Source of the DNA: an uncultured Actinomycetes bacterium
GTDB taxonomy: Bacteria > Actinomycetota > UBA4738 > HRBIN12
Assembly: GCA_963704885.1 (NCBI GenBank)
Contig: CAVPIB010000001.1
Location: 256,001 to 320,000 of the forward strand
Direction: 5' to 3'
Length of the DNA: 64,000 nt
A model generated the notes under the pieces. The model did no database searches. It was not told the origin of the DNA and saw only the letters and a list, made by a program, of their open reading frames with translations. Each line of letters begins with the position of its first letter. Position 1 is the first letter of the stretch. The translations under genes and the position numbers were made by a program. Shown here piece by piece: positions 27,915-61,868 of this stretch.

Positions 27915-28439
27915 TCAGCGGCGGGGACGGAGGGCAGCGGCCACGAACCAGCCCACGCCCAGGTAGACGCAGAGGTCCCCAACGCTCACGATCGCGTTCA
28001 CCGGCGCGGGGATCCCGATCGAGTCGGCCAGCGGGAGCAGCACGGATCCGTCGTCCGCAAGGTGATGCTTCGCTCCACCGCTGGCGCGGAGCTCCGTCTC
28101 TGCCGCCGTCGCCGCCTGATCCGATCCGGAGAGCGCCGCCCGAGTCACGGGCATCCCGTGGTTCGCGACGATCACCACCGCGTTCAGCATCAACCCCGTC
28201 AGGATGAGGATGAAGCCCGGCGAGCGCAGGTTGATGAACGCGAACGAGAGCAGCAGGGCCAAGGACCCCACGAGCGCAGCGAACGCCCAGCGATCAGCGA
28301 TCGGCGCGAACTGCAGACCGAGGCCGATCACCGCGAGCGGCCACCACCGGAGCGTGACCGTCGGGAACGACCGGATGCTCCCGCCGGCAAGCAGGCCGAT
28401 GACCACACCGGCGACCGCGACGATGAGGATCGGACTCAC
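27915..28439 (-). CDS. DUF5317 family membrane protein (copy 1)
   Basis: GLLAGGS...LRWWPL..LQF; GLMLNAVVIVANHGMPV; GGAKHH; LADSI..SVGD. GTGA overlap with the larC stop; clear paralog of 59773..60318. Confidence 0.82.
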   Translation of the reverse strand: MSPILIVAVAGVVIGLLAGGSIRSFPTVTLRWWPLAVIGLGLQFAPIADRWAFAALVGSLALLLSFAFINLRSPGFILILTGLMLNAVVIVANHGMPVTRAALSGSDQAATAAETELRASGGAKHHLADDGSVLLPLADSIGIPAPVNAIVSVGDLCVYLGVGWFVAAALRPRR

Positions 28440-29629
28440 TCGTCGAGCGCCTCTCGCGCCAGACGGGTGGCCTCCTCGTACACGTCGCGAGCGGGGATCC
28501 CGGCGTCCCTGGCGATCTGCGCGCAATCCTCGAACTCGGGCGCGACCGTTACCGCCTGGCCTGCTAGGAGTCCGATCTTCACGCGCACCGTGCCGTGATG
28601 CGTGGTGACCTCGATCCACTCGCGTTCCAGCGTCCGTTTGTCGACGGACGACATCCGGATCCCAAGCGTCCCCGTCTCGCGGAACAGGACCTGTCGGATC
28701 GCCTCCTGCCTCTGCGGCGAAGCCAAGACGCTGATCATGACCGCCGGCCGTCCCTTCTTCATCACGATCGGGGTGAGCCACGCATCCTGCGCCCCTGCGT
28801 CGAAGAGCCGCTCCAACACGTAGCCGTAGAGCTCGGGGTTCAGATCGTCGACGTTCGTTTCGAAGACCAGTTCGGTGCCGACCGGCGCGTCGGTCGCGGT
28901 GGAGATGGCATCCCGGTCCTCCTCGCCGATCAGGACGCGCAACACGTTGGGGAAGTCCAGTCGCGCGCTCCCCGCTCCGTACCCGACATGCTCGATGCGC
29001 ATCGGCGGCAGTTCGCCGAAACCCTCCACGATCGACGCCAGGATCGCGGCGCCGGTGGGCGTGACCAGCTCGACCGACACGCCGCGCGAGTACATCGGCG
29101 CGCCTCGCAGCAACTCGACCACGGCGGGCGCAGGTATCGGCAGCGAGCCATGCTCCGTCTTCACCATGCCGAACCCCGTCGGGACGGCCGAGGAGAACAC
29201 TCGCTCGACGCCGAGCGACGAGAGCGCGAGCGCCGTCCCTACGATGTCCACGATTGAGTCGACTGCGCCCACCTCGTGGAACGTGACCTGTTCGAGCTCC
29301 TTACGGTGGATCATGGCCTCGGCTTCGGCCAACCGTCGGAAGATGCGCTGCGCCATCCCCTTGGCGTTGAGCGGCATCTCGGCCTGATCCAGCAGCGAAC
29401 GGATGCTGGCGTACGTTCGGATGAGACCCAGTGACGATGTGTGCACGTGCACCTTGGTCGCGCGCAAGCCGCCCGAGTCCACCTCCTCGACATCCAGTTC
29501 GAACGGTTCCAGCGGCAGGCCGGCGAGGCCTTTGCGGATGGGCTCCAGGTCGGCGCCGGCGTCGATCAAGGCACCCAGGGCCATGTCGCCCGAGATACCT
29601 GCGATGCAGTCGAAGTAGAGGATCTTCAT
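28436..29629 (-). CDS. larC: Nickel pincer cofactor biosynthesis protein LarC
   Basis: YFDCIAGISGDMALGALID, FHEVGAVDSIVD, ELVTPTGAA, ETNVDD, MKKGRP, PEFEDC. Confidence 0.95.
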   Translation of the reverse strand: MKILYFDCIAGISGDMALGALIDAGADLEPIRKGLAGLPLEPFELDVEEVDSGGLRATKVHVHTSSLGLIRTYASIRSLLDQAEMPLNAKGMAQRIFRRLAEAEAMIHRKELEQVTFHEVGAVDSIVDIVGTALALSSLGVERVFSSAVPTGFGMVKTEHGSLPIPAPAVVELLRGAPMYSRGVSVELVTPTGAAILASIVEGFGELPPMRIEHVGYGAGSARLDFPNVLRVLIGEEDRDAISTATDAPVGTELVFETNVDDLNPELYGYVLERLFDAGAQDAWLTPIVMKKGRPAVMISVLASPQRQEAIRQVLFRETGTLGIRMSSVDKRTLEREWIEVTTHHGTVRVKIGLLAGQAVTVAPEFEDCAQIARDAGIPARDVYEEATRLAREALDE

Positions 29630-30405
29630 GCTTCAGCGACCCTAGGTGCAGAGCGGACGACGCGAAGGGCCACCTGGGCGGCCCCGAAGCCGTTGTCGAT
29701 GTTGACGACCGCCACGCCCGGGGCGCACGACGACAACATGGTGAGCAGCGCCGAGAGACCCTCGAACGAGGCTCCGTATCCGACGCTCGTCGGTACGGCC
29801 ACGATCGGCGTCGAGGTGAGCCCTGCCACCACCGAGGGGAGCGCGCCCTCCATGCCGGCCACGACGATGACGCAGTCCATGCGCTCCAGGGTCGCGCGGT
29901 GCTCGAGGATCCGGTGGACGCCCGCGACGCCCACGTCGGTGATGCGCTCGACGCGGACCCCGGCGCTCTCCGCGGTTATCGCGGCCTCATCGGCGACCGG
30001 GAGGTCGGATGTTCCCGCGGCCACGACCGCGATCACTGCTTCGATCTTCACGTCGGCGGTCTTCACTACGACCAGGCCGGCGCTCTCGTGGTATCGCGCG
30101 CCGGGCACGGCCTGTATCGCCGCCGAGGCCTGCTCAGGCGTGGCGCGGGTAACCAGCACCGCGCCGGTGGCGCGGGCCGCGAGCGCCACCGCGATGGCGC
30201 GGACCTGCTCGGGGGTCTTGCCCGGTCCGTAGACGGCCTCGGGATGGCCGGTGCGCAATTCACGGTGATGGTCCACCCTGGCGTCGGTCACGGCTTCGTA
30301 CGGGAGCGTGCGCAGGACCTCGACGGCGTCGGCCACCGGTGTCGTGCCGGATGCCACGTCGTCCAGCAGCCGAGCCAGCGTTCGTTCGTCCACGAGGGGG
30401 CTCAT
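29626..30405 (-). CDS. larB: Nickel pincer cofactor biosynthesis protein LarB
   Basis: DHHRELRTG.PE.VYGPGK, AGTSDLPVA, DVGVAG.HR, AGMEGALPSV, VPTSVGYG, VVNIDNGFGA. Confidence 0.95.
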   Translation of the reverse strand: MSPLVDERTLARLLDDVASGTTPVADAVEVLRTLPYEAVTDARVDHHRELRTGHPEAVYGPGKTPEQVRAIAVALAARATGAVLVTRATPEQASAAIQAVPGARYHESAGLVVVKTADVKIEAVIAVVAAGTSDLPVADEAAITAESAGVRVERITDVGVAGVHRILEHRATLERMDCVIVVAGMEGALPSVVAGLTSTPIVAVPTSVGYGASFEGLSALLTMLSSCAPGVAVVNIDNGFGAAQVALRVVRSAPRVAEA

Positions 30406-30473
30406 CGTATACTCAGGAGCCTTCACCGAAAACCGCAGGTAGATGGCCGTTTCGCCGTTCCCGGGGGAGCCCG

Positions 30474-52533: not shown

Positions 52534-52959
52534 ATGCGCCAATGGGAGCTGATCGGCATCACCGATCAGGTATCGGTGACACCCGAGAGACACGTGGCGA
52601 ACGACGATCCGGCCGAGGGACCAGCCTTCTTCTGGACCACGGACGGTGCACTGCGCCTCAGAGGCATGAGCCGGAGCGCGGCACAGGCTATCGGCCGCCC
52701 CGTGGAGTGGTGTCTCGGACGTGACCTGCTGGACGTGTTCGGGCTGGACGGACCCAACGCGGGTCTGCTGGACGCGCATATCACCGCCCTCAGTGGGGAC
52801 ACGGCCACGTTCACCTTCCGGGGGGACCGGGTGAGCGTTCGGTGCTTCGTCCAGCCCATCACCGATGCCATGGGGAGGGCATCCGGAACGTGCTGCCTGG
52901 CTGCACGGATCGAGAACGTCGACATCCGCGACGATCCGGATCGCTCCGCGGTCGCCTGA
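52534..52959 (+). CDS. Small PAS-like domain protein
   Basis: FFWTTDGALR...GRDL..F...H..AL.G....F...V.P..D..G...G..C pattern; GAGGGG RBS. Confidence 0.6.
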   Translation: MRQWELIGITDQVSVTPERHVANDDPAEGPAFFWTTDGALRLRGMSRSAAQAIGRPVEWCLGRDLLDVFGLDGPNAGLLDAHITALSGDTATFTFRGDRVSVRCFVQPITDAMGRASGTCCLAARIENVDIRDDPDRSAVA

Positions 52960-52969
52960 TCCGACGCGT

Positions 52970-54242
52970 TCAGCCGGTGAAGGAAGCGGCGGCGTCCAGC
53001 GTGCGCTCGGCTCGTCTCTTCGTCGTGCGTCGTTCCTAGGCTCCAGAGCTCGTAGCCCGACGGCGGTAGGTACACCCCCCGCTCCAGCAGGTGGTGGAAG
53101 AACCGCGCGTATCGGTCGTGGTCGGCCGCCCGGGCGTCCTCGAAGTTGCGGACCGGCCCTTCCGTGAAGAAGACGCTGAACATCGACGAGGCGCGGTTGA
53201 TCGTGGCGGGGATGCCGGCGGCCGTGAATCGTTCGGCGAGACCGTCAGCGAGTTGTCCGGCGTGCCGCTCCAGGAACGGGTAGGGCTGTTCCTCGCGGGC
53301 GAGGTCGAGCGCGGCGATCCCCGCGGACACCGCCACCGGGTTCCCGCTCAACGTGCCGGCTTGATAGACCGGACCGAGAGGCGCGAGGTGTTCCATCACG
53401 TCGCGGCGTCCACCGAACGCCGCGCACGGGAACCCGCCTCCCATGATCTTGCCTAGGGTCGTGAGGTCCGGCATCACCTCGCACAGCGACTGCGCGCCCG
53501 AATACGCCACGCGGAAGCCGGTGATGACCTCGTCGAAGATCAACAAGGCGCCGTATCCGTCACAGAGGGCGCGCAGACCGCTGAGGAAGGACGGATCTGG
53601 GGCCACGACCCCCATGTTCGCGGCGATCGGCTCCACGATCACGGCGGCAACCGCTTCGCCTTGGTCGGCGAAGACCCCGCGAACCGCCTCGAGGTCATCG
53701 AACGGGGCGGTCAGCGTGTCCTTCGTAGAGCCTTCGGTGACGCCCGGAGATCCGGGGATCCCGAACGTCGCGACCCCCGAGCCGGCCTTCGCCAGCAGGC
53801 CGTCTGAGTGTCCGTGGTAACAGCCGTCGAACTTCAAGATCCGGTCGCGCCCGGTGAACCCTCGCGCCAGACGGATCGCGCTCATGGTCGCCTCCGTTCC
53901 GGACGAGACGAGGCGCGCCATCTCCACGCTCGGCACCGCGTCGACCAGCCGTTCCGCGAGTTGCACCTCGAGCTCGGTCGGAGCACCGAAGGATGTGCCG
54001 CGCGCCGCAGTGGTCGTGGCCGCCGCCACGATCTCGGCTCGGGCGTGTCCGAACAGCAGCGCGCCCCAAGACTGCACGTAGTCGACGTAGCGGTTCCCGT
54101 CCACGTCGAAGAGGTACGGGCCCTCGCCACGTTCGATGAAGCGAGGGGTTCCGCCCACCGCGCCGAACGCCCGGACGGGCGAGTCGACGCCTCCGGGTAT
54201 CACCTCGCGCGCGCGCGCGAACAGCGCCTCGGATGAGGTCAC
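52970..54242 (-). CDS. hemL: Glutamate-1-semialdehyde 2,1-aminomutase (frameshift near 53012)
   Basis: PGGVDSPVRAF, SGTEATM, YHGH.D, FDEVITGFR, GKIMGGG.P, YQAGTLSGNP. The corrected C-terminus AERTLDAAASFTG* stops at 52970. Confidence 0.93.
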
Positions 54243-54252
54243 AGTTCTGAGG

Positions 54253-55236
54253 TCAGCCCTCCTGCAGCCACTCGGCCGCGTCCTTGGCGTGGTAGGTGAG
54301 GATCAGGTCGGCGCCGGCGCGACGGATCGATGTCAGGATCTCCACGACGGTCCCTCGTTCGTCGAGCCAGCCGTTCTGTGCGGCCGCCTTCACCATGGCG
54401 TACTCGCCGGACACGTTGTACGCGGCCACCGGGAACGATGTGGCGTCCTTCGCCCGGCGGATCACGTCTAGATAGGGGAGTGCGGGCTTGATCATCACCA
54501 CGTCGGCGCCCTCCTCGATGTCGGCGCGCACCTCGCGGATGGCCTCGTCGGCGTTGGCTGGGTCCATCTGATAGCCGCTGCGGTCGCCGAATCGAGGAGC
54601 ACACTCGGCAGCCTCGCGGAACGGGCCGTAGAACGAGCTCGCGAACTTGGCCGCGTAGGCCATGACGCCGACGGCGTCATGGCCGGAGGAGTCGAGCGCG
54701 TCGCGGATGGCGGCCACCTGGCCGTCCATCATGCCGCTCGGTCCGACCATCTGAGCCCCCGCCTCCGCCTGCGCGACCGCTATCCGTCGGTACCGCTCGA
54801 GCGTGGCGTCGTTGTCTACGTTCCCGTCTTGATCCAGCACCCCGCAGTGGCCGTGGTCCGTGTACTCGTCCAAACAGAGGTCGGCGATGACGACGTGCTC
54901 GTCGCCCAACTCCTCACGGAGCGTTCGGAGCCCGCATTGGGCGATCCCGTCGGGGTTCCAAGCCGCGGTTCCCTCAGCGTCCTTGCGTTCCGGAACGCCG
55001 AAGAGCATGAACGCGCTCACTCCGCGCGCCGCGATCTGCGCGACCTCCTTGCGGACCGACTCAAGCGTGTGCTGGAACTGCCCCGGCATGGAGCCGATCG
55101 CCACGGGGTCGGTGAGCCCCTCCTTCACGAAGAGCGGCGCGATCAGCTGACGGGGGGCCAGGTCCGTCTCGCGGATCAACGCCCTGAGGGCGGGGGTCCG
55201 GCGCATGCGCCGAGGACGCTGTTGGGGGAAGCTCAT
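54253..55236 (-). CDS. hemB: Porphobilinogen synthase
   Basis: DLCLDEYTDHGHCG, PSGMMDG, FYGPFREA, MIKPALPYLD, AYNVSGEY. Confidence 0.98.
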   Translation of the reverse strand: MSFPQQRPRRMRRTPALRALIRETDLAPRQLIAPLFVKEGLTDPVAIGSMPGQFQHTLESVRKEVAQIAARGVSAFMLFGVPERKDAEGTAAWNPDGIAQCGLRTLREELGDEHVVIADLCLDEYTDHGHCGVLDQDGNVDNDATLERYRRIAVAQAEAGAQMVGPSGMMDGQVAAIRDALDSSGHDAVGVMAYAAKFASSFYGPFREAAECAPRFGDRSGYQMDPANADEAIREVRADIEEGADVVMIKPALPYLDVIRRAKDATSFPVAAYNVSGEYAMVKAAAQNGWLDERGTVVEILTSIRRAGADLILTYHAKDAAEWLQEG

Positions 55237-55997
55237 CCCCGGATGCTAGCGCGTCGCCGCGGTGTGAAGGCCCGCTCCAACGCCGCGACCAGGCCCTCGA
55301 TCGTGTGGGGGCGCGCCACGGCCGCGACGCGTATGCCGCGATCGCGGGCCTCTTCGGCCGTGACCGGACCGATGCACACCACCTTGGGGCTGCCGCGCAC
55401 CACGCCGACGGCTCCCACGAAGCCCCGAACCGTCGACGCGCTCGTGAACGTGATCGCGTCAACATGACCGTCGCGGAGTGCATCGCGAGCATCGACCGGT
55501 AGCGACTTGGCCATCCTGGTGCGGTAGGCATCCACTCGTTCCGGGCTCCAGCCCTTGGCGGCTAGCGCCTCCTCGAGCCCGACGGGGGCGATATCAGCAC
55601 GCGCACATAGCACCCGGCCCTCGCCGCGGGGGAACGCCCGCGCCAGCGCGCCGGTCGTGAACGAGCTCGGCGTGAGGTCGGGTCCTCGACGCGCCCATCG
55701 CCGGAACGCGTCGCTCGTACCCTCGCCGACGGTCGCGACCTGGGCGCGCAAGTCCGAGGGCTGGATCCGGGATGCGAGCATCTCCACGGTCGACCGGCTC
55801 GTGAGCGTGATCCACGAGTAGCGCCCATCGGCCAGGTCACGCAACGCTCGCGTCAGGGCGGCTGATCGCGCGGGAACGATCTCGATCGAGGGAGCCGCGA
55901 TCGGAGCGGCGCCGGCTCGACGAAGCAGCCGAACCAGCTCGGCCGACTGATCCGTCGGTCTCGTGATCAGAACGACCCGCCCGGCGAGCGGCTTCAT
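55233..55997 (-). CDS. hemD: Uroporphyrinogen-III synthase
   Basis: LAGRVVLITRP, LTS, VG..T, FTSASTV, IGPVTA; position between hemC and hemB. Confidence 0.9.
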   Translation of the reverse strand: MKPLAGRVVLITRPTDQSAELVRLLRRAGAAPIAAPSIEIVPARSAALTRALRDLADGRYSWITLTSRSTVEMLASRIQPSDLRAQVATVGEGTSDAFRRWARRGPDLTPSSFTTGALARAFPRGEGRVLCARADIAPVGLEEALAAKGWSPERVDAYRTRMAKSLPVDARDALRDGHVDAITFTSASTVRGFVGAVGVVRGSPKVVCIGPVTAEEARDRGIRVAAVARPHTIEGLVAALERAFTPRRRASIRG

Positions 55998-56892
55998 CCC
56001 TGGTTGCCAGTGACTCGAGGATCTCTTCCGCGCCTTCGGCGATGAGCGCTTTCGTTGCAAGGCCCGCGACCCCCTCAGGGGTGTCGGAGACCACCTGTGC
56101 CTGCGCCAAGCGGGAACCGTCGGGAGACACCACGACAGCGATCATCTCTATACGGCGATCGTCCACGGTGGCGAGCGCGCCCAGCGGCAGTGTGCACCCG
56201 CCCCCCAACCGCCACATCAGCGAACGCTCCGCCTCCAACGCTATCCGGCTGGCCGCGTGGTCGAGCGACGCGAGCGCCGTCAGAGTTGGGAAGTCGTCCT
56301 CGCGTGCCTGTAACGCCAGCGCTCCTTGTCCGGGCGCGGGCACCATCACATCGAAGCCCAGCGGGGCCGAGTGCTCCGGTGACGCTCCCAGGCGCGACAG
56401 TCCGGCCGCCGCGAGCACCGCGGCATCCACCACACCCTCCGCGACCTTCCGCAGCCGGGTGTCGACGTTCCCGCGCAGGTCCTGGACGGTGACCCCGGGG
56501 AACGCCCGGAGGAGTTGCGCACGGCGACGGATGCTGGACGTGCCGATCACCGCACCCGATGGGAGCGCCGGCTCGCGCAGGACCAGCACGTCGGCTGGAT
56601 CGGCTCGTTCGGGAACCGCACCGATCACCAATCCATCCTCGTCATCCGCCGGTAGGTCTTTGGCGGAGTGGACCGCGACATCGATCGTCCCGCGCTCGAG
56701 CGCGTCCAGGATCGTGTCCACGAACAACCCTTTCAGCCCTCCAGGAACGTCCTGCGACGGTTCGCCTTCGTCGCCTGATGTCGACATGGGGACCAGCTCG
56801 GCGTGGACGCCGCGATCCGCCAAGCTTCGCAACACCTCGCCTGCCTGCGCGAGCGCGAGTGGGGAACGACGGGTGCCGATCCGGAGCGTCAC
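55994..56892 (-). CDS. hemC: Hydroxymethylbilane synthase (probable C-terminal frameshift; ORF track runs to 55837)
   Basis: IGTRRSPLALAQ, KGLF, VHSAKDLP, GTSSIRR, RGNVDTRL, PAPGQGAL, GGGC..P. The natural end is expected at the ATGA overlap with hemD. Confidence 0.92.
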
Positions 56893-58166
56893 TCGGAGTC
56901 TGGGTCGATGCCGATGCCGAGCAGCTCGGCCAAGACGTCGGCGTGCATGCCGTCGGACCCGGGCTCGCTTCGCTCCTTGAGCGCCACGATCGGGTCGTGC
57001 AGTAGCTTGGCTGCGACTCCGCGCGCGAGCGACACGACGGCCTCGCGCTCATCGGGCGTGAGTGCGGCCAACCGTGCTGCGTAGCGGTCGAGCTCGGCGC
57101 TCACGGCCTCGTCGCCCCGCCGGCGTACCGCGCGTATCAGCGGCGCCAGCGCGTCCGACCGCCGACGTACCACCCATCGCCGCACTTCCTCCGTCACGAT
57201 CGCGTGTGCACGGGCCATGTCATCCGCCGTCTCCTCGGCGTGGGTGGAGAGGCGGTCCCGGATCGCCTCGATGTCGATCAACCGCACACCGTCCAGCGCA
57301 GCGACATCCGGGTCTACGTCCCGGGGAACGGCGATGTCGATCAACACGAGCGGCTCGCGGCGGCCCTCGATCGCGCCTCGAACCGCGTCCGCGTCGATCA
57401 CGATCCCTGCGGCCCCCGTCGCGGACACGACGATGGCGGCGTTCGCCAGTGTCTCCGGCAGCTCTTCAAGACCGCCGGGTTCGGCGCCCGTCATCGCGGC
57501 GAGCTCTCGTGCAGATCCGACCGAGCGATTCAGCACGCGGATATCACCGACACCACGTCCTCTGAGGTGCTTCACGGCGATGCGCGCCATCTGACCGGCG
57601 CCCACCACCACCACTCTGCATCCATCTAGCGGGCCGAGCACCTCGCTCGCCAGATCGGCGCCGACGGACACGAACGCGTCGGGTGCCGCCCCGAGCGCCG
57701 TCTCGGCCCTGGCTCGGCGACCCGCCCGCCCGGCGGCGTGGAAGAGCGCGGTGAGAACCGGCCCCGAGGCCTCCTCGCGCGCCGCCCTACGCAGCGCATC
57801 GCGCACCTGCGCGTGGATCTGGGTCTCGCCGATGATCATGGAGTCCAGTCCGGCGGCGACCGTGAACAGGTGGTCGGCTGCGTCTCGTTCCCAGTGGGAG
57901 TACAGCGGCTCGGCCAGCTCCTCCACGCCGACCCCGCGGGTCTCGGTCAGCACCCGCTTGAGCGCCAGGAAGCCCGCGTGGTACGAGGAGACGCTGGCGG
58001 TGAGCTCCACACGGTTGCAGGTGGACACGATGACCGCCTCGTCGATCGCATCCTGATCCAGGGCATGGCGATACGCCTTGGCCAGGTCGTCGTCCGCGAA
58101 CGAGAGCCGCTCCAGCAGCTCGATCGGTGCGCGACGGAAGCTGATCCCGAGGGTAAGGATAGGCAT
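56889..58166 (-). CDS. hemA: Glutamyl-tRNA reductase
   Basis: STCNRVE, GLDSMIIGETQI..QV, VVGAGQM, DIAVPRD, KLLH.P; ATG at 58166. Confidence 0.96.
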   Translation of the reverse strand: MPILTLGISFRRAPIELLERLSFADDDLAKAYRHALDQDAIDEAVIVSTCNRVELTASVSSYHAGFLALKRVLTETRGVGVEELAEPLYSHWERDAADHLFTVAAGLDSMIIGETQIHAQVRDALRRAAREEASGPVLTALFHAAGRAGRRARAETALGAAPDAFVSVGADLASEVLGPLDGCRVVVVGAGQMARIAVKHLRGRGVGDIRVLNRSVGSARELAAMTGAEPGGLEELPETLANAAIVVSATGAAGIVIDADAVRGAIEGRREPLVLIDIAVPRDVDPDVAALDGVRLIDIEAIRDRLSTHAEETADDMARAHAIVTEEVRRWVVRRRSDALAPLIRAVRRRGDEAVSAELDRYAARLAALTPDEREAVVSLARGVAAKLLHDPIVALKERSEPGSDGMHADVLAELLGIGIDPDSE

Positions 58167-58231
58167 CTGAGGTCGGCCGTATCCTAGCCGCCTGGCTCCC
58201 GGGCGGTCCGCGCGTCGGGCACGCGGCGAGA

Positions 58232-59773
58232 CTAGTGGGCGGGGGCCTCCGACGCTGTCGCGGGAGCATGCAGGGGCAGGCGAACCGTGAACGTGCTGCC
58301 TTCGCCCGGCGCGCTCTCCACCTGGACGGACCCTCCGAGATGGCGGACCAGGTCCCTCACCATGGACAGGCCGAGTCCCGCCCCCCGGAACCGGCGGGTG
58401 GCCGACGAGTCCACCTGGTAGAAGCGCTCGAAGATCCGGTCGAGCTCCTCGGGCGCCATCCCGATCCCGTGATCGCGGATCCAGAAGACCAACTCGCTGC
58501 CTCGGGCACGGGCGCCGAACTCGCACTTGACGTCGTCGGCCGAGTACTTAAGCGCGTTATCCAGCAGGTTCGACATCACGCGTCCCAACAGCTGACGGTC
58601 GGTGTGCAGCACGGGGATGTCGTCGGGAACGTCGACCGACACCCGCTCGGAGTCGGTGCCCAGACCCTCCACCGCCTCTCGGCACAGGTCCTCGAACAAG
58701 ACGCGCCCGACCGAGATCGACAGCTGATCGCTCTCCAGCTGCGACGTGGTGAGCAGGTTCTCCACCAACCCGACCAATCGGTCGCCTTGGCGCTCGATCC
58801 GCTCGAGGAACTCGTCCCGAAGCTCCGGATCCTCGGCGAACTGCGGTTGGCGCAGGGTCTTGGCGTATCCGTTCATGGCCGTGATCGGGGTCCTGAGCTC
58901 ATGGGAGACCACAGCCACGAACTCTCCCTTCATCCGGTTCAGTTCCCGGAGCTGGTCGACGGTGGCGCTCTCCTTCCTCAGCAGACCCTCCAAGCGCTCG
59001 GCCTGGTCCTTCAGAAGTGAGTTCTGCTCGGCCAGCCGATCCGTTAACACGCGACTCCGGAAGTACATCTGGCGCGCGAACACCAGCGGCGCCAGGAACA
59101 CGACGACCGACCAGGCGCCTTCCTCCACGTAGAACCTGGCGATCACCACGCCGAAGAGCGCGAGGCCGATGTAGGAGAGCAGGAACTCGCCCGGCCGGGT
59201 GCCGTGCATCTTCTTCAGGACCTGCCTCACCGTGAGTCCGTACTGGAGTGAAGCGTGCAAGGCGACGAGGATCGCGTTGATCGCGTACGCCACGACCGTC
59301 GCCGCGAGCGCGGCGGGGACCAGCTCCCACCAGGGATCGAGGACGTTCGACAGTTGATGGAACATCGCGCTACCCGCCACGACGGCGAGCGCCATCTGCG
59401 AGCGGTTCCAGAACGACCGCAAAGCCGGAACCTCGCCGCGGAACTCGTGGACGTCTGACGACCCCAAGATCGCGATCGTGCCTGCGACCGGAGGGGGGAG
59501 GAGCAAGGCGACGCCGATCATGATCGGGAACGACAACGAGAGCTCGATGTCCTGCCAGGCCGGGATCGGGATAAGGTCCACGCCGGCGATGCAGAGCGTG
59601 AAGAACAGGGCGCCCCATCCGATCGTCTCCCAGTCCGTCTGCCCTGCCTCCCACGCGAGCCAGATCGCTATAGGGGCGACCAGGACGATCTCGAGCCACT
59701 GCACGGACCGGTCGGTCGATCTGCCTTTAGCGGTCGGGCTATCAGATCGCAGCTCCAGATCCTCCAGCTCCAT
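58232..59773 (-). CDS. Sensor histidine kinase with multi-TM (MASE-like) input domain
   Basis: About 7-8 TM segments, coiled coil, VSHELRTP, NLLDNALKYS, D.GIG, IFERFYQ, GAGLGL; start overlaps the DUF5317 stop. Confidence 0.93.
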   Translation of the reverse strand: MELEDLELRSDSPTAKGRSTDRSVQWLEIVLVAPIAIWLAWEAGQTDWETIGWGALFFTLCIAGVDLIPIPAWQDIELSLSFPIMIGVALLLPPPVAGTIAILGSSDVHEFRGEVPALRSFWNRSQMALAVVAGSAMFHQLSNVLDPWWELVPAALAATVVAYAINAILVALHASLQYGLTVRQVLKKMHGTRPGEFLLSYIGLALFGVVIARFYVEEGAWSVVVFLAPLVFARQMYFRSRVLTDRLAEQNSLLKDQAERLEGLLRKESATVDQLRELNRMKGEFVAVVSHELRTPITAMNGYAKTLRQPQFAEDPELRDEFLERIERQGDRLVGLVENLLTTSQLESDQLSISVGRVLFEDLCREAVEGLGTDSERVSVDVPDDIPVLHTDRQLLGRVMSNLLDNALKYSADDVKCEFGARARGSELVFWIRDHGIGMAPEELDRIFERFYQVDSSATRRFRGAGLGLSMVRDLVRHLGGSVQVESAPGEGSTFTVRLPLHAPATASEAPAH

Positions 59774-60318
59774 CAGACCGCCTCACGCTCGACGACCCGG
59801 CGTGTTCGGCGCGGCATCGCTCCCACGATGAACCAGGCCGCTCCTAGTTGCACGCTCACGTCTCCGATCGAGATCGCCTGCTCGATCGGCGCGCCGATCG
59901 GGATCACGTCACCGAGGAAGAGAAGCTTCGTATCGGCGTCGGCCAGGTGGTGCTTGGCGCCGCCGTTTCGCACGAGGTCCTCCAGGGTCGCCTGTTGGCC
60001 CGACGCCACCAGCGCGTGCTCGGAGACGGGCATCCCGTGGTTGGCGACGATGACGAGAGCGTTCAGAGCTAGTCCCAGGAGGATAAGGACGAACCCCGAA
60101 GCGGACAGGTTCCGTATGGCGAACGCGATCAGCGCAGCGAACGACGCGGAGAGCGCGATGGTGCCGGCCGTCCCTCCGAGAGGTGCGAACTGCATGAGGA
60201 CCCCCGCGACGGCGAGACCCCACCAACGCAGACGTACGGAGGGGAAGTCGCGAACGGTACCCCCGGTCACCAGACCGAGGATGAACGCCCCGACGATCGT
60301 GAACAGGATCAAGCGCAA
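59773..60318 (-). CDS. DUF5317 family membrane protein (copy 2)
   Basis: LGLVTGG...LRWWGL..MQF; GLALNALVIVANHGMPV; GGAKHH; LGDVI..SIGD. Confidence 0.85.
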   Translation of the reverse strand: MRLILFTIVGAFILGLVTGGTVRDFPSVRLRWWGLAVAGVLMQFAPLGGTAGTIALSASFAALIAFAIRNLSASGFVLILLGLALNALVIVANHGMPVSEHALVASGQQATLEDLVRNGGAKHHLADADTKLLFLGDVIPIGAPIEQAISIGDVSVQLGAAWFIVGAMPRRTRRVVEREAV

Positions 60319-60349
60319 GTTCGCACACCTTCAGATGTCGACCTCTCAG

Positions 60350-60377
60350 TCATCGGGGGTATGTACGTGCCGCTTGA
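60350..60377 (-). promoter_or_regulatory. Candidate sigma28/WhiG-like promoter for the DUF5317-kinase operon
   Basis: Minus strand TCAA-N16-CCCGATGA. Confidence 0.45.
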
Positions 60378-60409
60378 GCGTGTCAGCCAGACAGGCGATG
60401 GATCTGCCC

Positions 60410-60437
60410 TAAAGGTCCGACAGTCACCGTCCGACAA
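60410..60437 (+). promoter_or_regulatory. Candidate sigma28/WhiG-like promoter, peptide 1
   Basis: TAAA-N16-TCCGACAA (consensus TAAA-N15/16-GCCGATAA). Confidence 0.55.
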
Positions 60438-60478
60438 CTTGGGGGCAGGAACCCCTGCGAAGGAAAGGAGCACGAGTG

Positions 60479-60565
60479 ATGGAACGCCTCAGGCGGACCC
60501 TTCTCTCGCTCGGCGCCGTCGCCGTCTTCTTGATGGCTGCGGGCGCTGGATGGCGGAACTACTAA
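60479..60565 (+). CDS. Small signal-peptide-like precursor peptide 1 (MERLRRTLLSLGAVAVFLMAAGAGWRNY, 28 aa)
   Basis: AAGGAG RBS; paralog with conserved frame 320 nt downstream; followed by a perfect hairpin; below the ORF-track size cutoff. Confidence 0.8.
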   Translation: MERLRRTLLSLGAVAVFLMAAGAGWRNY

Positions 60566-60583
60566 GTTCCGTTCCCCCCGGAC

Positions 60584-60614
60584 ACCGGGGCCGCCGCGAA
60601 GCGGCGGCCCCGGT
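60584..60614 (+). terminator. Perfect 14-bp hairpin after peptide 1
   Basis: ACCGGGGCCGCCGC-GAA-GCGGCGGCCCCGGT. Confidence 0.75.
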
Positions 60615-60736
60615 AACACCGGTCTCCCACGGCAGCGCTTGGGACCCCCTCACGGGGCCGCGTCCCGATCCAGGGATCCCCCTCGATCCTCGACCCGGAT
60701 AGAGCCTGTCGGCCACATGGGCGATAGATCGACCCC

Positions 60737-60763
60737 TAAAGGTCCGACAGATACCGCCGATGA
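60737..60763 (+). promoter_or_regulatory. Candidate sigma28/WhiG-like promoter, peptide 2
   Basis: TAAA-N15-GCCGATGA, one mismatch from the sigma28 consensus. Confidence 0.7.
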
Positions 60764-60798
60764 TCGGGGAAGGAACCAGCGAGGAAGGAGCATGAGTG

Positions 60799-60900
60799 AT
60801 GGAACGCCTCAAGCGGATCACCTTCCTGCTCGGAGCTGCGGCCGCCTTCTTGATGGCCGCGGGCATCGGCTTCGGCATGGATGGATGGCGGAACGGGTAG
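60799..60900 (+). CDS. Small signal-peptide-like precursor peptide 2 (MERLKRITFLLGAAAAFLMAAGIGFGMDGWRNG, 33 aa)
   Basis: GAAGGAG RBS; paralog of peptide 1 with an in-frame 5-codon indel; followed by a hairpin. Confidence 0.8.
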   Translation: MERLKRITFLLGAAAAFLMAAGIGFGMDGWRNG

Positions 60901-60918
60901 GTCCCGCTCTCAGGTTGC

Positions 60919-60945
60919 CGGGCCCGCCGCGACGCGGCGGGCCCG
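60919..60945 (+). terminator. Perfect 12-bp hairpin after peptide 2
   Basis: CGGGCCCGCCGC-GAC-GCGGCGGGCCCG. Confidence 0.75.
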
Positions 60946-60974
60946 TTGCTTAGGTCTCACTTAGAATCCGGGGC

Positions 60975-61063
60975 GGAGACGTGCCTGAGTGGCCGAAAGG
61001 AGCCGCCTGCTAAGCGGTTAAGGGGGTAACACTCCTTCCCGGGTTCGAATCCCGGCGTCTCCG
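60975..61063 (+). tRNA. tRNA-Ser(GCT)
   Basis: Acceptor GGAGACG/CGTCTCC, anticodon loop CTGCTAA, long variable arm, GTTCGAATC; TAGAAT -10 at 60962. Confidence 0.96.
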
Positions 61064-61117
61064 CCGGTTGGCGACTCAGGTTGAAGTTCTAGGATCGGGT
61101 GTGCCGATAGGTCCAGG

Positions 61118-61720
61118 GTGCGCCGCCGTCTGACCGTCGGGTTGATCCTGGGCCTCCTCGTGTCCTCGCTCGGGGGCAGGGCTCAAGGCGTCCCACCGGC
61201 GGAGGTCCACGTCGATGCGCTCGACGATCACTTCCTGCCGTCCCTGGTTTCGGTCAAGCGAGGTGGGACCGTGGTGTGGGACTTCACTGGGCTTCGCACT
61301 CACTCCGCCACCGACGAGAGCGGCCTCGATCTGTACGACTCGGGTCTGGTGGCCCCAGGTGGTTCGAGCTTCTCGTTCACGTTCGAGTCGGCCGGAACGT
61401 ACCGGTTCGTGTGCACGTTGCATGAGGGGATGGACGGGCGGATCTCGGTGCCGATGCGCGCGTCACCTAAGGAAGGCTCGATCGACGAAACGTTCACCGT
61501 TCGTTGGTCGAAGACCGACGCGTCCCCCGGTTTCGTGTTCGACGTGCGCATCCGCGTGAAGAAGGGCGTTTGGCAGATCTGGCAGGACGGGGTGACGTTC
61601 GCGAACGCCGTGTTCCACCCTGGGGTGGTCGGAAAGGTGCGGTTCGCCGGGAGGCTGCGATCGTTGAGCTCGGGGGCGACATCCGAGTGGTCCGAGCCGA
61701 TCCCGATCCGCGTGCGATAG
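61118..61720 (+). CDS. Secreted cupredoxin/plastocyanin-domain protein with C-terminal beta domain
   Basis: Signal peptide; V.W....HSAT; GTY.F.CTLHEGM type-1 Cu ligands. Confidence 0.82.
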   Translation: MRRRLTVGLILGLLVSSLGGRAQGVPPAEVHVDALDDHFLPSLVSVKRGGTVVWDFTGLRTHSATDESGLDLYDSGLVAPGGSSFSFTFESAGTYRFVCTLHEGMDGRISVPMRASPKEGSIDETFTVRWSKTDASPGFVFDVRIRVKKGVWQIWQDGVTFANAVFHPGVVGKVRFAGRLRSLSSGATSEWSEPIPIRVR

Positions 61721-61753: not shown

Positions 61754-61826
61754 GCGCCGGTAGCTCAATGGATAGAGCATCTGACTACGGATCAGAAGGT
61801 TGGGGGTTCGACTCCCTCCCGGCGCG
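61754..61826 (+). tRNA. tRNA-Arg(ACG)
   Basis: Acceptor GCGCCGG/CCGGCGC, anticodon arm TCTGA-CTACGGA-TCAGA, GTTCGAC; TAGACT -10 upstream. Confidence 0.97.
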
Positions 61827-61868
61827 CAAGGTCTGCTGAGCCGTCACCGCGGTCCGTATGCTCCGCCA

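Follow-up and report, generated by a model that had tools for sequence, protein, structure and literature searches.

The two small open reading frames (ORFs) found at 60479-60565 and 60799-60900, on the plus strand of a 64,000-nt stretch of DNA from an uncultured actinobacterium of the HRBIN12 lineage, are real, conserved genes of a previously unnamed microprotein family. The whole of this stretch (contig CAVPIB010000001.1, positions 256,001 to 320,000) is referred to as the window, and positions are counted from its first letter. The products of the two ORFs, microproteins A and B, are encoded divergently from an operon for a DUF5317 membrane protein and an orphan sensor histidine kinase. Comparison across genomes reveals that the tighter partner of the peptides is the MASE9-like membrane domain, present here in the kinase, and not DUF5317. 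The favoured explanation, to which a probability of about 0.55 is assigned, is that the microproteins would be membrane-resident single-helix partners of the MASE9 sensor, of which DUF5317 would be a further part.

Microprotein A (60479-60565; 28 residues, class I) comprises a basic N-terminus, MERLRR, a single hydrophobic helix ending in FLMAAGAG, and the tail WRNY. Microprotein B (60799-60900; 33 residues) is related to A as a tandem paralogue that has diverged and that carries five inserted residues ahead of the tryptophan (IGFGMDGWRNG). Both ORFs start with ATG, each having an in-frame GTG one codon 5' of it, and both are preceded at 8 nt by a Shine-Dalgarno sequence, AGGAG for A (60466-60470) and AAGGAG for B (60785-60790). 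A perfect GC-rich hairpin follows each of them on the same strand, with a 14-bp stem 3' of A (60584-60614; -40.1 kcal/mol, z -5.17) and a 12-bp stem 3' of B (60919-60945; -36.6 kcal/mol, z -2.69). Neither hairpin has a U tail; that of A is terminator-like and is kept in orthologues. An initial annotation of this DNA had described the two ORFs and their sequences, and had given each of them its own ribosome-binding site and perfect hairpin, all of which hold. The A and B units represent a tandem duplication with a mean column identity of 80%. B has diverged quickly from A, synonymous (pS) and nonsynonymous (pN) divergence between them being 0.32 and 0.22, respectively. The possibility that B is a decaying pseudogene was rejected, as B-type variants are kept in other assemblies, where the exact B sequence and two close 33-residue variants are found; B-like tails of the insertion type also recur in the metagenome representatives P0131 and P0164.

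Purifying selection on the microproteins is strong. Among orthologues of the genus, the peptide shows 89-100% identity, as compared with 62-68% for DUF5317 and 70-76% for the membrane domain of the kinase. The three sequences were compared over one set of 21 genome pairs; pN/pS was lowest in the peptide (0.083), followed by the kinase membrane domain (0.286) and DUF5317 (0.437), these ratios being rough because pS is uncorrected and near saturation. For microprotein A in the genus, pS reaches 0.47-0.56 against a pN of 0.042, and at the invariant codons 20-24, encoding AAGAG, all four synonymous codons are in use. The hydrophobic core of the peptide is the most strongly constrained sequence at the locus, and a Shine-Dalgarno sequence stands at the right spacing in all family members among the matches listed.

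Members of the family share one architecture: about 23-35 residues, a basic N-terminus, one hydrophobic helix ending in A-x-G-A and a very short aromatic/basic tail. They occur in 209 of the 294 genomes of the class to which the window belongs, and the named records among the loci are all metagenome-assembled genomes of uncultured Actinomycetota. None of 40 family members matches a Pfam or NCBIfam model at E <= 0.01. A profile search of 1.84 billion protein representatives retrieved 219 relatives; the best 150 of these have 25-93 residues, and 141 of the 150 end no more than 6 residues past the match. Because the relatives are short and end near the match, the family is taken to exist solely as free-standing micro-ORFs rather than as signal peptides of larger proteins. 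In the loci examined no peptide is fused to a larger protein, apart from two cases: L038 is the signal peptide of a larger ORF and was counted as a false positive, and L067 is a variant without the W-K/R end. Those members of 28 residues or fewer that were looked up are absent from a collection of 15 billion proteins, in which members of 33-35 residues are present as unnamed or 'hypothetical' entries, so the family has mostly been missed by gene callers. The tail after the helix has 2-5 residues in most members and differs by class, with W, F or Y plus K or R kept. Five metagenome representatives (P0042, P0120, P0136, P0144 and P0161) carry an extra tail of 8-12 residues past the W-K/R, rich in F, L and D (e.g., ...DLFDLFQLFD), and would make up a separate subclass whose exposed tail is longer. 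The genome that contains the window has a third member of the family, which belongs to class III, has 27 residues and lies outside the window (C1:392891-392971, minus strand; locus L104, 3992-4072), between two MASE9-HisKA_3 kinases. On one side, that locus is flanked by genes for a HAMP kinase and an OmpR-type response regulator, and on the other by a gene for an oxygenase of the MpaB/Lcp family.

The sensor histidine kinase of the window (58232-59773, minus strand; 513 residues) harbors a polytopic MASE9-like domain, a long connecting helix, HisKA and HATPase_c. Since HisKA (69.2 bits), with its H-box SHELRTP visible in the translation, is followed by HATPase_c (103.6 bits), the protein is a histidine kinase of the HisKA type. 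It is called an orphan because none of the 48 receiver-domain matches in the genome lies in the 64-kb window (C1:256001-C1:320000). Its membrane domain, at about residues 20-240, matches MASE9 (PF20972) weakly, with 20.8 bits, under the cut-off of 24.3, and paralogues found with the same domain profile exceed that cut-off, namely the protein at L104:4254-5774 (28.5 bits) and two proteins of L039 (27.6 and 24.5 bits). MASE9 has been defined as a domain of about 8 membrane segments, two of which are too short to span the membrane and form an intramembrane hairpin; the part of the source consulted here describes HD-GYP and GGDEF-EAL outputs and a ligand that is unknown and thought to bind within the membrane (bioRxiv 10.1101/2021.11.05.467447). 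Promiscuity of output is thus common to MASE9 and to the domain described here. In the AlphaFold2 (AF2) model of the kinase membrane domain (predicted local distance difference test, pLDDT, 88.5), helices are assigned, from secondary structure only, to residues 21-45, 54-66, 82-91, 94-104, 117-141, 148-178 and 194-218; of these, 82-91 and 94-104 are short and may be the counterpart of the MASE9 intramembrane hairpin.

When this model was searched with Foldseek, 19 of the first 20 matches listed were S components of energy-coupling factor (ECF) vitamin transporters. These matches have E values of 0.007-0.7 (best 0.0068, none reaching 0.001), probabilities mostly of 0.85-1.00, target TM-scores of 0.43-0.67 and identities of 12-19%; a sequence-profile search of the PDB with the same domain gave no match. 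The likeness to S components such as BioY, RibU, ThiT and FolT, which bind a small ligand at the outer face, is one of fold only, and no ECF T or A component is in the ORF list of the locus. It may be taken as a lead towards a small ligand pocket in MASE9, and not as a sign of family membership.

The DUF5317 protein (59773-60318, minus strand; 181 residues) is recognized by PF17248 with 95.7 bits against a cut-off of 25 (E 3.6e-27). Its gene starts 160 nt from that of microprotein A, in divergent orientation, and its stop codon overlaps the start of the kinase gene in the sequence TGATG, so the initial annotation was right in placing the micro-ORFs divergently from a translationally coupled DUF5317-kinase operon. 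The AF2 model of DUF5317 (pLDDT 92.8) has four N-terminal helices, a small alpha/beta insert at residues 94-150 and a final helix. By the positive-inside rule the insert is predicted to face outward and the basic C-terminal tail to be cytoplasmic, an orientation that agrees with the fused forms described below. In an alignment of 28 sequences the columns N93, M96, P97, K122, H123, D137, S150, G152 and D153 are invariant. The model has no match in the PDB by Foldseek (best E 1.0), a sequence profile found nothing meaningful there, and the ESM Atlas gave no usable match; a full-text search of the literature for DUF5317 or PF17248 found no paper. Another DUF5317 paralogue, free-standing and sharing about 52% identity with that of the locus, is encoded in the window at 27915-28430 (minus strand). 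By eye, its neighbours, the ORFs 28436-29629 and 29626-30426, are LarC- and LarB-like proteins of the nickel-pincer cofactor type; no MASE9-like gene was detected within about 4 kb, and none of the peptide searches located a family member nearby.

In the initial annotation DUF5317 was proposed to be the enzyme that matures the peptides, and this part of that model is not supported. In some organisms DUF5317, a MASE9-like domain and HisKA/HATPase form a single chain (P0001-P0006), and in P0007 DUF5317 and the MASE9-like domain are joined in one chain to GGDEF-EAL. Because of these fusions DUF5317 is regarded as a module of the same sensor, and it is not readily seen as a maturation enzyme. The DUF5317 gene precedes the MASE9-like gene in most loci of the class. 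In a phylum sample of 301 Actinomycetota genomes, drawn evenly, the two genes are found, by eye, on one contig about 1-4 kb apart (e.g., G540:C9, G528:C1, G392:C13 and G436:C137), and among 14 control genomes both families occur in the same two, Thermus and Thermotoga. Accessory membrane proteins are known for several intramembrane-sensing kinases, such as LiaF for LiaS, SaeP and SaeQ for SaeS, and YycH and YycI for WalK. DUF5317 resembles them in being small, polytopic and co-transcribed with a kinase that is nearly devoid of an extracytoplasmic domain, and by this analogy it plausibly forms one complex with the kinase. It differs from them in sharing no homology with any, and in being found also fused to the sensor and beside enzymes of cyclic di-GMP (c-di-GMP) turnover.

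The association of the small ORFs with this operon is not peculiar to the window. The same small ORF adjoins the orthologous DUF5317 gene in related genomes, and a family member lies within 1.5 kb in 17 of the best 30 DUF5317-centred loci from 41 related genomes. Over the whole DNA of these 41 relatives, 34 of 45 peptide matches are within 700 nt of one of 82 DUF5317 matches, although such intervals make up only about 0.1% of that DNA. The adjacency of ORF and DUF5317 is therefore far beyond chance, and the enrichment of small ORFs beside DUF5317 genes that the initial annotation had expected is real. Its other expectation, co-occurrence with the membrane domain of the sensor, holds as well: among the best 36 peptide loci from the class and phylum searches, a MASE9-like domain is encoded within the 1.5-kb flanks in 33, and DUF5317 in 30.

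It is outside the class that the two candidate partners can be told apart. In the phylum sample, the peptide profile finds a family member at 15 of 30 MASE9-centred loci, as opposed to none of 30 DUF5317-centred loci. The 15 consist of 12 of 26 loci from other classes and 3 of 4 from the window's own class, and all 12 out-of-class matches are on the same strand as the MASE9 gene and just 5' of it. In the search of whole genomes, only three genomes of the sample outside the class have a peptide match at E <= 1e-4, and all three matches adjoin a MASE9-like gene. A generic small-ORF finder adds six further out-of-class MASE9 loci, for which no chance control was made, bringing the number to 18 of 26. 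The partners examined outside the class are canonical MASE9-HD-GYP proteins in 10 of 10 cases. When a strict pattern was applied, requiring W, F or Y followed by K or R at the end, only own-class peptides were found beside MASE9 loci (2 of 30). The class-restricted family that this result implied was wrong: members from other classes, as retrieved by the profile search and the generic finder, end otherwise (e.g., ...RW or ...TWH). Three loci from other actinobacterial families, L118, L120 and L127, in genomes of 1.6-2 Mb, have two to three identical tandem copies of a micro-ORF of 23-26 residues ending in ...GICSTVRW upstream of MASE9 genes, the neighbour in L120 being a confirmed MASE9-HD-GYP protein. 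These are the shortest members identified, with a hydrophobic stretch of only about 15 residues.

Three arrangements recur. In class I the peptide gene is divergent from genes for DUF5317 and a MASE9-like HisKA kinase, as in the window; in class II one or two IIb-IIa pairs lie 5' of, and on the same strand as, DUF5317 and a MASE9-like GGDEF-EAL protein; and class III peptides are encoded beside MASE9 kinases of the HisKA_3 type. The outputs of the MASE9-like sensors linked to peptides include HisKA kinase, GGDEF-EAL, PAS-kinase and HisKA_3 kinase. In a tree of 69 MASE9-like domains, classes I, IIa plus IIb, and III fall in separate sensor clades, the support for class II being 100/99; some of the rows marked as having no peptide have a class III-like match just beyond the edge of the locus (e.g., G024:C15 and G035:C104). 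Peptides and sensors have co-diversified, the class of the peptide following the MASE9 clade regardless of the output.

As most lineages outside the genus place the micro-ORFs 66-200 nt 5' of the sensor gene and on the same strand, it could be argued that they are cis-acting leader or upstream ORFs, whose translation would control the adjacent sensor genes and whose peptide product would be irrelevant. This is very improbable, given that in the window and in the genus the ORFs are divergent and have strong hairpins of their own, that selection acts on the amino-acid sequence while synonymous change is free, and that the architecture is constant across classes with dissimilar DNA. A role as leader peptide of the tRNA-Ser gene or of the hem genes was also rejected, as each ORF has its own hairpin and orientation.

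According to the favoured model, the microprotein would remain membrane-embedded, its N-terminus lying inside and its W-R/K tail at the outer face, and its helix would pack against helices of MASE9, and of DUF5317. It would be an obligatory subunit or a modulator that sets or gates the output of the sensor, which would be kinase activity at this locus and c-di-GMP turnover in the paralogous systems. This reading is preferred because the whole helix is the most constrained part, because the peptide stays with the input domain whatever the output type, and because the two have co-diversified. The layout of the peptide also suits it, little more than one helix being held between a basic anchor and, at the opposite end, an anchor of tryptophan plus basic residues. 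Several points weigh against it. The same layout is that of a Sec signal peptide, with a basic n-region, a hydrophobic stretch of 13-18 residues and small residues in A-x-A-like spacing, so that cleavage is conceivable. Some of the out-of-class hydrophobic stretches, at about 15 residues, are short for a transmembrane helix. Tandem multiplication, to 2-4 copies, is commoner in peptide precursors than in subunits, and the pN/pS ratios on which the constraint is judged are rough, for the reason given above. Finally, some loci have no MASE9 or DUF5317 gene in their flanks, namely L080 (1.5 kb each side) and L031, L032, L033 and L037 (4 kb each side; L084 is the place of L032, and L089 that of L031). 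A co-fold of DUF5317, kinase residues 1-260 and peptide A, made with alignments, gave a score of 0.01, a value that lies outside calibration for a peptide of fewer than 30 residues.

A rival reading, which follows the initial annotation, takes the microproteins to be pheromones, each made of a signal peptide and a tiny mature part. Signal peptidase, or the outward domain of DUF5317, would cut after A-x-G-A, and the released tails of 3-11 residues (GWRNY, IGFGMDGWRNG) would act as signals, either diffusible or autocrine, for the MASE9-like domain to sense. The n/h/c organization, with small residues at -3/-1-like positions, the tandem and paired copies, and tails that are class-specific and yet keep W/F/Y plus K/R are all in line with this. 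The invariant K122, H123, D137, S150 and D153 of the DUF5317 insert could form a catalytic or binding site, and the resemblance of the MASE9-like model to ligand-binding ECF S components makes a pocket for a small ligand plausible. In addition, peptide and receptor are encoded together, as they are in the agr and com quorum-sensing loci, in which a small peptide gene likewise neighbours the genes for a multi-pass receptor kinase and a polytopic membrane protein. This proposal is nevertheless considered unlikely. The hydrophobic core, which would be discarded, is far more constrained than the neighbouring proteins, and the mature part would have merely 2-5 residues in most members. DUF5317 is absent beside many peptide-MASE9 pairs, the peptide profile found nothing at its 30 loci from the phylum sample, in some organisms it forms one chain with the sensor, and its model is unlike any solved protease fold. 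As the initial annotation had also noted, there is no relative of AgrB or ComQ: Pfam and NCBIfam scans of the ORFs from hemA to tRNA-Ser found neither an AgrB-family peptidase nor a ComQ isoprenyl transferase, and no C39-peptidase exporter or other peptide-processing family is at the locus. DUF5317 is the sole other membrane protein in the operon, and no match to the AgrD family was found. The kinase is moreover of the HisKA type and not of the AgrC type, no response regulator is encoded at the locus, and the peptide has no pro-region, consisting of a helix and 2-5 residues.

An arrangement of small, cationic, tryptophan-containing peptides, tandem or paired, next to a small polytopic membrane protein is also reminiscent of multi-peptide leaderless bacteriocins. 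On these grounds the microproteins could act on membranes as effectors resembling either leaderless bacteriocins or type I toxins, with DUF5317 as the immunity protein and the sensor regulating their production. The link to the sensor persists, however, where the output is c-di-GMP turnover and in loci without DUF5317, and DUF5317 is in some cases part of the sensor chain. No exporter or antisense-RNA element was found, Rfam giving tRNA only, and the peptides are almost wholly hydrophobic and not amphipathic, all of which makes an effector role highly doubtful.

The divergent intergenic region 5' of microprotein A contains conserved blocks (60354-60440, plus strand) that represent a candidate promoter or operator: CTTGAGC, GTC(A/G)GCC, a 17-nt block CCCTAAAGGTCCGACAG at 60407-60423 and a second copy of (G/T)CCGACA. 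These blocks are kept in eight genus orthologues and in copy B, where the second copy of CCCTAAAGGTCCGACAG is at 60734-60750 (plus strand), 5' of microprotein B, and in the 3.0-Mb genome the 17-nt block is present only at the two peptide genes. The initial annotation had given each ORF its own promoter; a sigma-70 consensus scan found no site, so that only the conservation of the upstream blocks across the genus speaks for this claim. A riboswitch or small RNA at the upstream block was considered and dropped, as Rfam passed only tRNA-Ser in 60200-61200.

The surroundings of the locus are as follows. On the strand of the kinase, its gene is followed 3' by hemA, the first of a run of haem-biosynthesis-like genes (52566-58170, minus strand), identified by eye from their translations as hemA-, hemC-, hemD-, hemB- and hemL-like. 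The gene 3' of microprotein B is tRNA-Ser(GCT) (60975-61065), which together with tRNA-Arg(ACG) (61754-61827), both on the plus strand, flanks the ORF 61118-61720 (plus strand). This ORF encodes a secreted, cupredoxin-like protein of 200 residues with, by eye, a C..H..M motif resembling a copper site. Elsewhere on the contig, at C1:971561-971842, seven chance tblastn matches to one 8-residue word lie 33 or 63 nt apart, which suggests a tandem repeat of 33-nt units.

That a small membrane protein binds a sensor is already known, which gives the favoured model a precedent. MgrB and SafA are small membrane proteins that bind the sensor kinase PhoQ, and MgrB, as a member of the regulon, acts by feedback, unlike the microprotein gene described here, which is fixed beside its sensor. 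KdpF, of 30 residues, interacts with KdpD in mycobacteria, as mentioned in the part of a review consulted here (PMC10730256). The likeness lies in a protein of about 30-50 residues with one helix that acts on a membrane sensor kinase and, in the case of KdpF, also in its size of about 30 residues, like these peptides, and in its being encoded beside its partners. The present family differs from MgrB and KdpF in that the 40 members compared match no curated Pfam or NCBIfam model. It differs from MgrB, SafA and KdpF in following MASE9 through kinase, GGDEF-EAL and HD-GYP outputs, in its co-diversification with that domain and in being often paired or multiplied. What is unusual is that a microprotein family is dedicated to a single sensor domain and accompanies it whether the output is of the two-component or the c-di-GMP type. 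The parts of the MASE9 literature consulted, supplements aside, make no mention of a histidine-kinase output, a DUF5317 partner or a microprotein, and those parts of the literature on HD-GYP and small membrane proteins that were consulted have nothing on micro-ORFs.

It has also been considered that MASE9 sensors are two- or three-part receptors, in which a dedicated microprotein would set the specificity, its tail would be the tethered or released ligand of an S-component-like pocket, and the mini-domain of DUF5317 would recognize or trim this tail. The idea is speculative and considered unlikely. If it were true, it would amount to an unrecognised peptide-based input to two-component and c-di-GMP signalling across Actinomycetota, and Thermus and Thermotoga, which also have both families, might share it.

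MASE9 is widespread, being present in 94 of the 301 sampled Actinomycetota genomes and in the Thermus and Thermotoga controls, and it has no known ligand or partner, while DUF5317 has no known function. The locus offers two candidate partners for MASE9, the microproteins of 23-35 residues and the DUF5317 module. If the microprotein modulates MASE9, or is sensed by it, this would explain how an input reaches a sensor that has hardly any exposed loops. Small-protein biology would at the same time be tied to the control of c-di-GMP, and annotators would gain a new family of small genes.

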